Below, in pieces: positions 14,140 through 17,816 of a stretch of 64,000 bases of DNA. Positions within the stretch are counted from its first letter, which is position 1, and each line of letters begins with the position of its first letter. Under the pieces are notes generated by a model, which saw nothing but the letters and a program-made list of their open reading frames with translations, did not search any database and was not told the origin of the DNA. The stretch is taken from contig NZ_CANLDB010000007.1 in NCBI RefSeq assembly GCF_947489365.1, positions 25,068-89,067 of the forward strand, in the 5' to 3' direction. Position numbers and translations under genes: made by a program. The stretch comes from an uncultured Nocardioides sp. (lineage in GTDB: Bacteria > Actinomycetota > Actinomycetes > Propionibacteriales > Nocardioidaceae).

Positions 14140-14172
14140 GTCAGGTCAGCGTCAGGTCAGCGTCAGGTCAGC
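14140..14172 (+). repeat. 11-bp tandem repeat GTCAGGTCAGC x3 spanning the permease stop codon
   Basis: Three exact copies at 14140, 14151 and 14162. Confidence 0.9.
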
Positions 14173-14978
14173 ACGTCCTTGCGCGCGAACACGACGTACG
14201 ACGCGCCGAGCAGCAGGACCGCCCAGCCGACGGACCAGGTGGCCCCGGTAGCCATCGCCGAGGCGTCGACGTCCGCGGCGAGGACGTCGGCCCAGGCGAA
14301 CTGGAAGTGCGTGGGCAGCGCGTCGCGGAGGTCGCCGAGCGCGTCGATGGTGTCGAGGATGCTGGAGACGATGGTGACCACCACCGCGGTGCCGACGGCG
14401 CCGAGCGGGGCGTCGGTGACGGTGCCGACGAAGAACGCGAGCGCGCCGACGAAGAGCAGGTTCACGAACAGGTACGCCACCGCGACGCCGAGACGCGGCC
14501 AGAGGTCGACCCACGCGATGGTCTCGCCCGCGAGGCCCCGGTAGGGCTCGGTGCCGTAGGCGACGAGGCCCACCAGCATCGTCCAGGCCGGCAGCAGCAC
14601 GAGGGCCACGGCGGTCGACAGCGCGGCGACGAGGAGCTTGACGCTCAGCAGCCGCGACCGCGGGACCGGCGCGGTGAGCAGGTAGCGCAACGACCCCCAG
14701 CTGGCCTCCGCAGGCACGGCGTCGCCCCAGAACAGCGCGACCACGACCACGAGCAGGAACCCGGTCGAGGCGAACAGCGTGAAGACCACGAGGTTCGGCG
14801 CCCCGGTCTGCGCGAGGTCGACGAAGGACGGCGCCCCGCCGGGCTCGTCGTCCCCGCCGAGCGAGAACGCGCCGACCAGCAGCAGCGGCAGGACGAGGAG
14901 GAACCCCAGGATCAGCCGGGTACGACGACGTCCGAGCTGGCGGCCGACCTCGGCGCGGAGCGGGAGCGGGCGGCTCAT
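14163..14978 (-). CDS. ABC-2 type transporter permease
   Basis: About 6 TM segments; GDAVPAEASWGSLRYLLTAPVPRSRLL..K motif; ends FARKDVLT. ATG 14978 overlaps the upstream stop (ATGA). Confidence 0.88.
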   Translation of the reverse strand: MSRPLPLRAEVGRQLGRRRTRLILGFLLVLPLLLVGAFSLGGDDEPGGAPSFVDLAQTGAPNLVVFTLFASTGFLLVVVVALFWGDAVPAEASWGSLRYLLTAPVPRSRLLSVKLLVAALSTAVALVLLPAWTMLVGLVAYGTEPYRGLAGETIAWVDLWPRLGVAVAYLFVNLLFVGALAFFVGTVTDAPLGAVGTAVVVTIVSSILDTIDALGDLRDALPTHFQFAWADVLAADVDASAMATGATWSVGWAVLLLGASYVVFARKDVLT

Positions 14979-17743
14979 GGGGCGGCCTCCTCGAGCTGGG
15001 CGGGACGGTCGCCACCGACGAGGCCCATGAAGACCTCCTCGAGGTGGCGGCGGCTGTCGACGCCGACGACGCCGTACCGCGCCCGCACGAGCGTGCCGAC
15101 CACGCGGGCGCGGTCGACGTCGCCCTCGACCCGGAGCCGGCCGTCGTCGGTCGCCCGGGCCGAGGTCACCCCGGCCAGGCCGCCCATGAGCAGCGCGGCG
15201 CCGGCGACGTCCTCGCCGTCGGCGAGGGTCACCAACGTCGTGCCGGCGTCGTCGGTGAGGTCGTCGACGGACCCGGTCAGCACGACCCGGCCGCGGTGCA
15301 TGACCACCACGTGGGTGCAGGTCTGCTCGACCTCGCCGAGCAGGTGGCTGGACACGACGACGGTGCGGCCCGAGGCGGCGTAGGAGGTGAGCACGTCGCG
15401 CATCGCGCGGATCTGGGGCGGGTCGAGGCCGTTGGTGGGCTCGTCGAGCAGCAGCAGGTCGGGCATGCCGAGCATCGCCTGCGCGATGCCGAGCCGCTGC
15501 CGCATCCCCTGCGAGTAGGAGCGCACCGGCTTGTCGGCGGCCGCACCGAGGTCGGCGACGGCCAGCGCCTCGTCGAACCCCGCCTCGGCGGGCCGGCGGC
15601 CCGTCGCGGCCCAGTAGGCGCGGAGGTTCTGCCGCCCGGTGAGGTGCGGCAGGAACCCGGGTCCCTCGATGAGGGCGCCGACCCGGGCGAGCACGCCGGA
15701 GCCCGCCGCGACGGGGCGTCCCATGACGCTGACCGACCCGGCGTCGGCGCCGATGAGCCCGACGAGCATCCGCATCGTGGTGGTCTTGCCGGCGCCGTTG
15801 GGGCCGAGCAGCCCGACGACCTGGCCACGCTCGGCGCGCCAGGAGACGCCGTCGACGGCGCGGAAGCCGTTGCTGTACTCCTTCACCAGCCCGTCGACGA
15901 CCAGCGGCACCTCGTCCACGCCGGCCGGCCCGGGACGGCGGCGGCGTCGGCCGCGCACGGCCCCGACGAGGGCGAGCAGCACCGCGAGGGCCAGCAGCCC
16001 GCCGACCCCGGCGAGCAGGCCGAGCGGCACCAGGCGACCGGTGGTCCCGCCGGGCTCGGTGGCCGGGGTGGGCAGCGTGAGGGTGCCGTCGACGAGCCCG
16101 ACGGTGTAGGCGCGCGGCTCGACGGGGACGGCGTACGCGGAGTCGGTGCTGGCCACGACGAGCCGCAGCCGCTGGCCGGCCTCGACGCGGTACGCCGACG
16201 TCGGCAGCCGGACCGTCACCTGACGGGTCTCCCCGGGGGTGGGGGTCTCCAGGCGCAGCGGCGAGACGAGCTGGCGCGGGAGGCTGGCGCTGCCGTCCTC
16301 GCCGACCAGCCACAACGACGCGAACAGGGTCGCGTCGTCGGCGGTGGAGGTGACCTCGAGGTCGACCGTGGGGGCGCCGACCACCGTCGTGGTCGCGGTG
16401 ACCGGCTCGCTCTCGAACGTCGCGGTAGCGCCCGGGAGGGCGGCGAGCGCGTAGCCCTGCCCGAGTCCGCCGAGGGCCCCGAGGGCGCCGCCGGTGCCGG
16501 GCAGCGCGGTCAGCGCGGAGGGCTCGCCGCCGGCCGGGCTGAGCACCGGCTGGGTGGCGCCCGTCAGGGCGACCTCGATGGTGGTCGGGTCCGCCACCAC
16601 GGCGTACGACGGCGCCGTGCGCTCCTCGGCCTCGCCGTCACCGAGGGGCGGGGCGGGAAGCACCAGGTCGAACGCGGTGCCCGGGTCGGGCCCACCACGC
16701 AGGTGGTGGTCGAACCAGTCGAGCGCGGGGCCCAGCAGCTCGTCGTCGTCGATGACCGGGATCGTGTCGTGGCCGGAGTCGACCCAGCGCACGGCGACGG
16801 TCGTCCCCGCCTCCGTCAGCGCGCGGGCCGTGGCGTCGGCCGCGTCGAGCCCGAAGAGCGAGTCGGACTCGCCCTGCAGCAGCAGCGTCGGCGCCTCGAC
16901 CCGGTCGAGCACGGGCGCGGGCGAGGAGCGGCGCCGCAGCTGCTGCAGCGTGCCGGGCGCGGGCTCGCCGTCGACCGCGGCGTCCTGGTAGATCCGGCAG
17001 ATGCGGGGGGCGAACCGTCCGCAGAGCGGGTCGGCGTCCGCGTCGGGCGCGAGCTGGTCCAGCACGGCGCCCGGGTCGGCCCCGGAGAGGCCCTGCCCGG
17101 CGCCGAAGAGCAGCGCGGCCCAGCGCTCCTTGAACACCCCGGCCGCCGCGGGGCCGCCGCCGTCGGACGTCGCGCCCTGCGGGAACAGCGACGCGCCGAG
17201 GTCGTTCCAGGTCACCGCGGGCACGACGGCGTCGACGCGGTCGTCGTACGCCGCGCCCATGAGCGCCGCTCCCCCGCCGTACGACGCCCCGGTGATGCCG
17301 ACGACGGGGTCGCCGTCGGCGTCGAGGCGGACGTCGTCCCGCTCGGCGAGCGTGTCGATCAGCGTGGAGACGTCCGCGATCTCCCAGTCGGGGGCGGAGA
17401 GGTGGATCAGACCGCCGGAGGCGCCGAACCCGCGGGCCGACCAGGTGAGGACGACGTACCCCTCCGCGGCGACGCGGCGCGCCTGGTCGGTCAGGTCGTC
17501 CTTCGAGCCGCCGAAGCCGTGCGCGAGCATCACCGCCGCGCGTCGGCCCTCGGTGTCGGCGCCGGGCGCGTCGTCGGCGGGGGTGAACACGGAGACGTCG
17601 AGCTCGGTCGGTCCGCTGTCCGGCTCGGCCTTCGCCGCGACCCTCTGCTCGGTCTCGGTGACCTCGACGCCGCTGGAGCCCCGGGTGAGGACCACCCCGG
17701 TGACGGCGGCCGCGGCGAGCAGCACCACGACCAGGGCCGCCAC
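14975..17743 (-). CDS. Fusion: extracellular CocE/NonD (S15-type) hydrolase - TM helix - ABC ATPase
   Basis: N-terminal hydrophobic segment; AHGFGGS and GASYGG serine elbow; PepX_C-like region; TM helix followed by RRRRR; Walker A GPNGAGKT, signature YSQGMRQR, LLLDEP, SSH. True start uncertain (see findings). Confidence 0.88.
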   Translation of the reverse strand: MAALVVVLLAAAAVTGVVLTRGSSGVEVTETEQRVAAKAEPDSGPTELDVSVFTPADDAPGADTEGRRAAVMLAHGFGGSKDDLTDQARRVAAEGYVVLTWSARGFGASGGLIHLSAPDWEIADVSTLIDTLAERDDVRLDADGDPVVGITGASYGGGAALMGAAYDDRVDAVVPAVTWNDLGASLFPQGATSDGGGPAAAGVFKERWAALLFGAGQGLSGADPGAVLDQLAPDADADPLCGRFAPRICRIYQDAAVDGEPAPGTLQQLRRRSSPAPVLDRVEAPTLLLQGESDSLFGLDAADATARALTEAGTTVAVRWVDSGHDTIPVIDDDELLGPALDWFDHHLRGGPDPGTAFDLVLPAPPLGDGEAEERTAPSYAVVADPTTIEVALTGATQPVLSPAGGEPSALTALPGTGGALGALGGLGQGYALAALPGATATFESEPVTATTTVVGAPTVDLEVTSTADDATLFASLWLVGEDGSASLPRQLVSPLRLETPTPGETRQVTVRLPTSAYRVEAGQRLRLVVASTDSAYAVPVEPRAYTVGLVDGTLTLPTPATEPGGTTGRLVPLGLLAGVGGLLALAVLLALVGAVRGRRRRRPGPAGVDEVPLVVDGLVKEYSNGFRAVDGVSWRAERGQVVGLLGPNGAGKTTTMRMLVGLIGADAGSVSVMGRPVAAGSGVLARVGALIEGPGFLPHLTGRQNLRAYWAATGRRPAEAGFDEALAVADLGAAADKPVRSYSQGMRQRLGIAQAMLGMPDLLLLDEPTNGLDPPQIRAMRDVLTSYAASGRTVVVSSHLLGEVEQTCTHVVVMHRGRVVLTGSVDDLTDDAGTTLVTLADGEDVAGAALLMGGLAGVTSARATDDGRLRVEGDVDRARVVGTLVRARYGVVGVDSRRHLEEVFMGLVGGDRPAQLEEAAP

Positions 17744-17816
17744 GGCCCGCTTGCGCCTCAGCTCCGGCCCCCGTCCATGACCCCAATCTAGGCGGCGGCT
17801 CCTGAGCCCCGGGCGG

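Follow-up and report, generated by a model that had tools for sequence, protein, structure and literature searches.

A widespread actinobacterial gene pair predicted to tether a surface serine hydrolase to an ABC transporter ATPase

Background

In ATP-binding cassette (ABC) transporters the ATPase is usually either a soluble subunit or part of one chain with the membrane domains of that transporter. The 64,000-nucleotide stretch of DNA analyzed here (the window; uncultured Nocardioides sp., RefSeq assembly GCF_947489365.1, contig NZ_CANLDB010000007.1, positions 25,068 to 89,067) encodes on its minus strand a protein in which such an ATPase is joined, by way of a predicted transmembrane helix, to a serine hydrolase, and the gene of an ABC-2 type permease follows directly downstream. 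This raises the questions of whether the fusion is a genuine and lasting design, on which side of the membrane each half lies, and what a transporter ATPase may contribute to a hydrolase. The ATPase would in this case be the membrane anchor of an exported enzyme, a design kept in hundreds of actinobacterial species, with Streptomyces, Rhodococcus and small-genome lineages among its carriers. The architecture and topology of the fusion protein, and a NosFY-like complex with the permease, are very probable on the evidence given below. A literature search on the fusion architecture found no paper and no functional study, in line with the first-pass annotation of this DNA, which knew of none, and the family is a widespread, unstudied variant of type V ABC systems.

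Results and discussion

Domain architecture of the fusion protein

The first-pass annotation, made from the sequence alone, had recognized an export signal, an S15/CocE hydrolase with a GASYGG motif, a jelly-roll, a transmembrane helix, an RRRRR run and a nucleotide-binding domain, in this order. All of them were found in one open reading frame (ORF), with Pfam matches and intact motifs (Table 1). The N-terminal segment shows low sequence conservation and a low predicted local distance difference test (pLDDT) score, as expected for a signal. It is followed by a match to Pfam Peptidase_S15 (PF02129) at residues 46-297 (52 bits, cut-off 23) and by one to PepX_C (PF08530) at residues 440-543 (61 bits, cut-off 22.5). 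The hydrolase carries an HGFGG motif (His75, 17519-17521), the GASYGG nucleophile Ser154 (17282-17284) with its triad partners Asp294 (16862-16864) and His325 (16769-16771), and two cysteines in the helical lid, Cys241 (17021-17023) and Cys249 (16997-16999). The HGFG motif, Ser154 (within GxSYG), Asp294, His325 and both cysteines are invariant in 54 of 54 homologues with identities down to approximately 50%, and many insertions and deletions among homologues occur in the lid region and at the N-terminus. The TIGR00976 (CocE_NonD) alignment covers residues 441-534 of the beta-sandwich, a segment that is strand-rich in the AlphaFold2 model, and scores 63.5 bits on the hydrolase half, just short of the cut-off of 66.3.

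The AlphaFold2 model of the fusion protein, built from a 54-sequence alignment, has a mean pLDDT of 87.5, the N-terminus and both linkers being less confident. A Foldseek search of the Protein Data Bank (PDB) with the outer half returned the PaL lipase (8yzn/8yzo, E ~2e-32), then cocaine esterase (CocE, E ~1e-24), alpha-amino acid ester hydrolases and PepX, and phmmer linked the hydrolase to PaL at E 3.6e-21; a search of the literature on the PaL structures yielded nothing useful. With the Pfam scores, the triad, the GASYGG motif and these fold matches, the outer half can be assigned to the CocE/NonD - peptidase S15 hydrolases, of which it appears to form a divergent branch. The known enzymes of this group (PaL, CocE, alpha-amino acid ester hydrolases and PepX) likewise combine an alpha/beta hydrolase domain, a helical lid and a C-terminal beta-sandwich, and have the GxSYxG nucleophile elbow and the Ser-Asp-His triad. 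However, their identity to the window hydrolase is only 18-22% and they align to its hydrolase part only, whereas the window enzyme is probably exported, membrane-tethered and fused to an ATPase.

The inner half matches Pfam ABC_tran (PF00005) at residues 631-771 (96 bits, cut-off 25) and can be classed with the ABC transporter ATPases. It has a Walker A motif GPNGAGKT (G647-T654), a signature YSQGMRQR (743-750), a Walker B motif LLLDEP with Asp767 and the catalytic Glu768, and an H-loop SSH with His800. The Q-loop position holds Glu693 (E-loop) in place of glutamine. The Walker A motif, Glu693, the signature (YSxGMxQR), Asp767-Glu768 and His800 are invariant in 54 of 54 homologues. With invariant residues in the triad as well as in the ATPase motifs, both halves of the protein look catalytically competent.

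In NCBIfam the ATPase is of the DrrA/LanF/NosI type, with all matches under the family cut-offs; the alignment to TIGR01188 (drrA) spans residues 621-910, and the lantibiotic-protection family TIGR03740 is the second-best match (E 8e-50). The C-terminal domain is regulatory-like, similar to those of NosF, TM_1403 and ABCA proteins, and Foldseek matched the inner half to TM_1403 (4yer) and NosF, each over approximately 300 residues, and to ABCA transporters. Among solved structures searched by sequence, the ATPase is closest to ABCA4, ABCA3, ABCA7 and ABCA1 (E ~1e-55 to 1e-50) and then to NosF (4e-38), and NosF is the best solved match for the stretch from the E-loop to Walker B (residues 684-774). 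NosF also has glutamate at the Q-loop position, together with a nearly identical signature (YSKGMRQRLG vs. YSQGMRQRLG here).

The permease gene begins with an ATG (14978-14976) that overlaps the TGA of the fusion gene (ATGA). The interval 14163-17761 given in the first pass hence comprises not one gene but two translationally coupled genes, and the coupled ABC-2 permease that the same annotation had noted is confirmed by this overlap, by six helices and by the Pfam match to ABC2_membrane_2 (PF12679; 41 bits, cut-off 27). PF12730 is matched as well. The N-terminus of the permease is basic and predicted to lie inside, and its AlphaFold2 model has a pLDDT of 90. Foldseek ranked NosY chains best (TM-score 0.6-0.68), followed by PmtD, ABCG, CcmB/C and Wzm. 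By sequence the permease matched no solved structure; NosY surfaced only in the fold search. The transporter part can be classed as a type V (ABC-2) module of the NosFY kind, with NosFY as the nearest solved bacterial relative.

Membrane topology

The fusion protein has only two hydrophobic segments, one at the N-terminus and one at about residues 575-596, where the AlphaFold2 model has a helix (574-600). Charge is distributed unevenly around both segments in 151 homologues: approximately 3 lysine or arginine residues precede the N-terminal hydrophobic stretch and 0.6 follow it, and the transmembrane helix is preceded by 0.8 and followed by a mean of 5 within 15 residues. Exactly two cysteines occur in the ectodomain of 153 of 154 homologues, and in the window protein the two are eight residues apart, which fits a disulfide. 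Since the ATPase must be cytoplasmic and a single helix separates it from the hydrolase, and given the positive-inside charge bias, the conserved cysteine pair and the sortase signals of standalone relatives in a sister clade (see below), we strongly infer that the hydrolase lies on the outer face of the membrane. Sortase substrates are by definition exported. The arrangement with the hydrolase outside and the ATPase inside, as proposed in the first pass, is therefore well supported.

Spacings on both sides of the membrane are tightly conserved. In about 90% of 126 fused homologues, 35-40 residues separate the last motif of the jelly-roll from the core of the transmembrane helix, and 49-53 residues separate this core from Walker A. 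These tight spacings point to a constrained geometry of the tether.

Distribution of the fusion and its permease

The best 120 matches in a protein collection are all 818-983 amino acids long and all have the same set of Pfam domains. The annotated ones belong to Nocardioides, Aeromicrobium, Intrasporangium, Knoellia, Humibacillus and Friedmanniella, and are described only as "alpha/beta fold hydrolase", "CocE/NonD family hydrolase" or "ABC-2 type transport system ATP-binding protein". In a scan of one genome per species, relatives were found in at least 586 species; counts of loci and neighbours given here cover the best 80 of these. Near-full-length fusions in these 80 extend across the Actinomycetota, including Nocardioides, Streptomyces, Kitasatospora, Rhodococcus, Williamsia, Geodermatophilus, Blastococcus, Lentzea, Amycolatopsis, Saccharopolyspora, Actinomadura and others. 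The two surveys agree with the first-pass expectation that the architecture would occur in other actinobacteria. An assembly join, or a fusion absent from relatives, had been named as grounds for doubt; the join was rejected, as the same ORF structure recurs in hundreds of independent assemblies.

The permease gene immediately follows the fusion gene in 79 of the 80 loci. It is the sole conserved neighbour: when the flanking ORFs were clustered de novo, no cluster occurred in more than 10 of the 80, and the clusters obtained reflect lineage synteny (for example GroEL, UvrB and threonine synthase). Of 400 further genomes sampled evenly across the phylum, 22 carry the fusion, and several of these 22 are 1.7 Mb in size. 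Owing to this patchy distribution, the fusion and permease constitute an accessory two-gene module. A natural triple fusion of hydrolase, ATPase and permease was not found among the long homologues, in which the extra length is low-complexity insertion. The window genome has a single copy of the fusion and otherwise only distant paralogues of the hydrolase. A standalone hydrolase paralogue (G000:C1:267354-267920, locus L085) lies in a 629-aa open frame and shows 41% identity over residues 44-224.

Standalone surface relatives

When the hydrolase half was used as a query against all representatives, standalone relatives were retrieved; they consist of a hydrolase and a beta-sandwich with a signal peptide and share 35-45% identity with the query. 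Seven of them (P0203, P0197, P0253, P0244, P0252, P0254 and P0262) end in an LPxTG or LAxTG motif, a hydrophobic helix and a basic tail, and three (P0141, P0201 and P0220) have a transmembrane helix with a polybasic tail at the C-terminus. The window protein has a helix and basic tail but neither an LPxTG nor an LAxTG motif, and does not belong to the sortase-anchored class. The sortase- and transmembrane-anchored hydrolases of Actinomycetota have the same hydrolase domains plus an anchor, but lack the ATPase and form a separate clade. In the tree of hydrolase domains the standalone surface forms make up one supported group of 20 rows (SH-aLRT 95). All remaining branches hold fused forms, apart from five unfused rows scattered singly between them; these five represent either secondary loss or truncated gene calls, some of them probably the latter. 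At one such nested locus (L082, encoding P0141) a gene for a Wzx-type polysaccharide flippase lies nearby, with two genes without Pfam match adjoining, a possible hint of a surface-glycan context that was seen once.

Comparison with known systems

The NosDFY(L) complex (PDB 7o0y, 7osf, 7qba and 7znq) offers the closest comparison. NosDFY(L) is an ABC-2 complex that matures nitrous oxide reductase, and its structures are reported to show a module that drives a periplasmic partner, not the movement of a solute. In structure the permease is most similar to NosY, and the closest solved bacterial match of the ATPase is NosF, with the E-loop glutamate and nearly identical signature in common, and in both systems a type V ABC module would work with an extracytoplasmic partner protein. 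However, NosD is a separate beta-helix protein, whereas here a transmembrane helix links the partner, a serine hydrolase, covalently to the ATPase. Neither nos genes such as nosZ and nosL nor a copper chaperone nor a NosD homologue lies beside the module in the window or in the 80 loci.

Peptidase-containing ABC transporters (PCATs) carry a cytoplasmic C39 cysteine peptidase N-terminal to a type IV membrane domain and cut the leader peptide before export. They resemble the window protein in having a hydrolytic domain and parts of an ABC transporter in one polypeptide. The window protein has no C39 match; its hydrolase is a serine enzyme that is predicted to face outward and shares a chain with the ATPase across a single transmembrane helix, while the ABC-2 permease is encoded as a protein of its own. 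The contrast drawn with the C39 peptidases in the first pass was thus correct as to layout but incomplete, since it missed TagGH and NosDFY as precedents.

TagGH, the type V wall-teichoic-acid exporter of Bacillus subtilis, has an ATPase subunit with a transmembrane helix and an extracellular SH3b-like domain (PMC11466899). We found no other description of an ATPase subunit that is linked through the membrane to a domain outside. The window protein shares this layout, in that a single chain combines an ATPase with an extracytoplasmic domain and one transmembrane helix lies between them. The order is reversed, however: in TagGH the ATPase comes first, followed by the transmembrane helix and a C-terminal SH3b-like binding domain, with a flexible linker of approximately 30 residues (PMC11466899). 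The outside domain of TagGH is also non-catalytic and not homologous to the hydrolase ectodomain, so that the likeness is an analogy of layout and not homology of the ectodomains.

Possible functions of the module

The reading that we favor, with a probability of roughly 0.45, is that the permease extracts or presents a membrane-associated amphipathic substrate, which the tethered hydrolases cleave outside. The complex would most likely consist of two fusion subunits and two permease subunits. Its NosY/PmtD-like permease dimer, driven by ATP, would extract the substrate or present it at the outer leaflet, the candidates being membrane-embedded or amphipathic lipids, lipid-linked compounds or peptide esters or amides, and the tethered hydrolases would cleave it there. 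The tether may serve to fix a 1:1 stoichiometry and a constant geometry between exit site and active site. If this holds, the family may point to an unrecognized turnover step of lipids, lipoglycans or amphipathic peptides at the actinobacterial surface.

Several observations weigh against this proposal. The outer linker varies in sequence among homologues and is modelled at a pLDDT of only about 71-72. Two homologues have 88 (P0172, 967 aa) and 135 residues (P0206, 1221 aa) between the transmembrane core and Walker A instead of about 52; in P0206 a low-complexity stretch lies between the helix and the ATPase. The spread of the module is patchy, as two of the sampled genomes, one from the same genus and the other from the same family, lack it, and its neighbours are unrelated housekeeping or lineage-specific genes that give no pointer to a substrate. 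Furthermore, no ABC genes lie beside the standalone hydrolase in any of the three sister-clade loci with enough flanking sequence (L087, L088 and L089), nor at L082, where the standalone form is nested in the fused clade. The hydrolase fold accordingly does not need a transporter. Because this type of enzyme can work alone, the ABC module should add something specific to the fused clade. A side feature of P0206 is a large Ser/Gly-rich insertion in the hydrolase lid.

The functional readings are not strictly exclusive of one another. The first pass had suggested that ATP hydrolysis may be mechanically linked to the outside hydrolase, with peptide-antibiotic detoxification, the processing of an exported substrate or envelope remodelling as candidate roles. 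Such coupling is plausible, but the evidence bearing on it is mixed. In a pure form of mechanotransmission, similar to NosDFY or FtsEX, the ATP cycle would act through the permease and the helix to switch the outside hydrolase between inactive and active, or undocked and docked, states, with nothing transported. Three findings would suit this: among solved bacterial structures NosF and NosY are nearest to the ATPase and the permease, tether lengths vary by only a few residues in about 90% of 126 homologues, and the fusion has been retained through deep divergence. The variable, low-confidence outer linker, on the other hand, means that force would need non-covalent docking on the short loops of the permease, two homologues tolerate the longer spacings given above, and the standalone relatives are presumably active without ATP. 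We consider pure mechanotransmission rather doubtful, and hold a covalent mechano-enzyme, whose ATP cycle gates or positions the surface serine hydrolase via the permease and a helix tether of fixed length, to be a similarly tentative idea. Should the ATP cycle control or feed the hydrolase, the module would join FtsEX and NosDFY as an ABC module working on an outside protein, differing from both by the covalent link and the catalytic partner. A Gram-positive cell with such a mechano-enzyme would gain energy-dependent hydrolysis, controlled from inside, of an envelope or membrane component outside.

Another possibility is a resistance or immunity module, in which an exporter similar to LanFEG or PmtCD would pump an amphipathic antimicrobial (a peptide, a lipopeptide, a macrolactone or an ester antibiotic) out of the membrane, to be destroyed outside by the tethered hydrolase. 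PmtD is a component of the phenol-soluble-modulin exporter. The permease resembles it in fold and matches PF12730, TIGR03740 is the second-best family of the ATPase, and the CocE/NonD relatives hydrolyze small-molecule esters and amides. Moreover, the E-loop (Glu693 here) has been described as a hallmark of LanF, essential for the function of LanFEG but not for ATP hydrolysis (bioRxiv 10.1101/2025.10.09.681468). The E-loop is, however, also present in NosF and hence marks a subgroup of ATPases and not lantibiotic immunity. The TIGR03740 score of 169.6 bits is far below the cut-off of 309.75, and there is one permease gene instead of a LanE/LanG pair. LanFEG and PmtCD lack a fused hydrolase, and the module here lacks a lantibiotic or phenol-soluble-modulin genomic context; neither a biosynthetic cluster nor a regulator or sensor is conserved beside it in the 80 loci, and it also occurs in streamlined 1.7-Mb genomes. 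An immunity function appears unlikely on this balance. A still somewhat less likely explanation is an accident of anchoring: a membrane-anchored hydrolase lost its stop codon and was fused to the next gene, the ATPase replacing the anchor tail and the two halves remaining independent, in which case the family would be merely an unusual anchoring of a surface esterase. Standalone relatives end either in sortase signals or in a similar transmembrane helix and polybasic tail (P0141, P0201 and P0220), so that the fusion could easily have arisen by read-through into the gene that follows, and the standalone forms function without ABC genes nearby. Yet the fusion is old and maintained, with fused forms filling most of the tree and only five unfused rows nested among them; linker lengths are conserved, the permease partner is kept in 79 of 80 loci, and the triad and the ATPase motifs are both invariant. 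An artefact (an assembly or frameshift join), or a cytoplasmic hydrolase with hydrophobic segments that do not span the membrane, is extremely improbable. Its sole support is the lack of a canonical start codon that would include the basic n-region, against which stand the recurrence of the ORF structure in hundreds of independent assemblies, an ATPase that must be inside with only one hydrophobic helix leading to the hydrolase, the charge pattern and conserved cysteine pair that fit an outside location, and the sortase signals of the sister clade.

Gene start and flanking genes

The region around the fusion locus has a G+C content of approximately 75% and therefore many long spurious ORFs; the minus-strand frames were recognized as real genes by their third-position G+C and the G+C pattern at codon positions 1 and 2. 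The frame of the fusion is free of stop codons from 17884 down to the TGA at 14975-14977. From the stop at 17884 there is no in-frame ATG, GTG or TTG before the GTG at 17743, which would give a product of 922 amino acids. The start given in the first pass, 17761, proved to be a CTG (17761-17759). As an alternative start this CTG has some merit: it is directly followed by RRKRA, a basic n-region as seen in other homologues, and the TGA of a 6-codon upstream ORF overlaps it (CTGA, 17761-17758). The same layout, with different codons, is present in Nocardioides sp. CFH 31398 (L081 5950-6010; 80% protein identity), where the upstream ORF reads GTG AGA GGG AGC CGG AGC TGA (MRGSRS*) and overlaps the CTG. 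Re-initiation at CTG 17761 after a leaderless upstream ORF is a reasonable guess. A frameshift by sequencing error at the gene start was considered and rejected as unlikely, because the second genome keeps the upstream ORF and the CTGA overlap with different codons.

Table 1 Features of the fusion locus and its surroundings (positions in the window)
Feature	Position	Strand	Basis or remark
N-terminal export signal or signal anchor	17687..17761	minus	basic n-region, then hydrophobic stretch VAALVVVLLAAAAVTGVVL
Alpha/beta hydrolase catalytic domain, residues 46-349	16697..17608	minus	Pfam, invariant residues, AlphaFold2/Foldseek
Beta-sandwich (jelly-roll) PepX_C domain, CocE/NonD type, residues ~358-558	16070..16672	minus	Pfam, TIGR00976, model
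Outer linker (residues 559-573) and single transmembrane helix (~574-596)	15956..16069	minus	hydrophobicity, model, spacing
Putative cytoplasmic polybasic stop-transfer RGRRRRR (597-603) and short ATPase linker	15911..15955	minus	sequence, homologue charge
ABC nucleotide-binding domain, residues 612-835	15239..15910	minus	Pfam, NCBIfam, invariant motifs
C-terminal regulatory-like domain, residues 836-922	14978..15238	minus	TIGR01188, model, Foldseek
ABC-2 (type V) permease, 271 aa	14163..14978	minus	six hydrophobic helices, Pfam, model
6-codon upstream ORF ATG GAC GGG GGC CGG AGC TGA (MDGGRS*)	17778-17758	minus	sequence reading
TAGATT box	17790-17785	minus	sequence reading, upstream of fusion gene
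TrkA	17817-18485	minus	upstream of fusion gene
TrkH	18507-19877	minus	upstream of fusion gene
RCK-domain potassium channel	19893-20996	minus	upstream of fusion gene
Short-chain dehydrogenase/reductase (SDR)	13084-14118		convergent with permease; cassette directly beyond permease
PucR regulator	11844-13151		downstream, cassette beyond permease
Alpha/beta hydrolase	10990-11886		downstream, cassette beyond permease

The genes on either side were considered as clues to function and rejected, as the upstream Trk genes and the downstream cassette of SDR, PucR and hydrolase genes are missing from the other 80 loci; the sole trace of the cassette elsewhere is SDR-like ORFs in 5 of the 80. A 165-aa ORF without Pfam match completes the upstream potassium-transport block (17817-21503), which among the loci compared adjoins the fusion only in the window genome and in its closest relative, Nocardioides sp. 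CFH 31398. The three-gene cassette looks like an insertion in the window genome. It has no counterpart at this position in CFH 31398, where the permease is followed directly by a histidine kinase and LuxR-type regulator pair (L081 8775-11499). Finally, an 11-bp unit, GCTGACCTGAC on the coding strand, is repeated three times in tandem across the stop codon of the permease gene (14140-14172), in the gap ahead of the convergent SDR gene.

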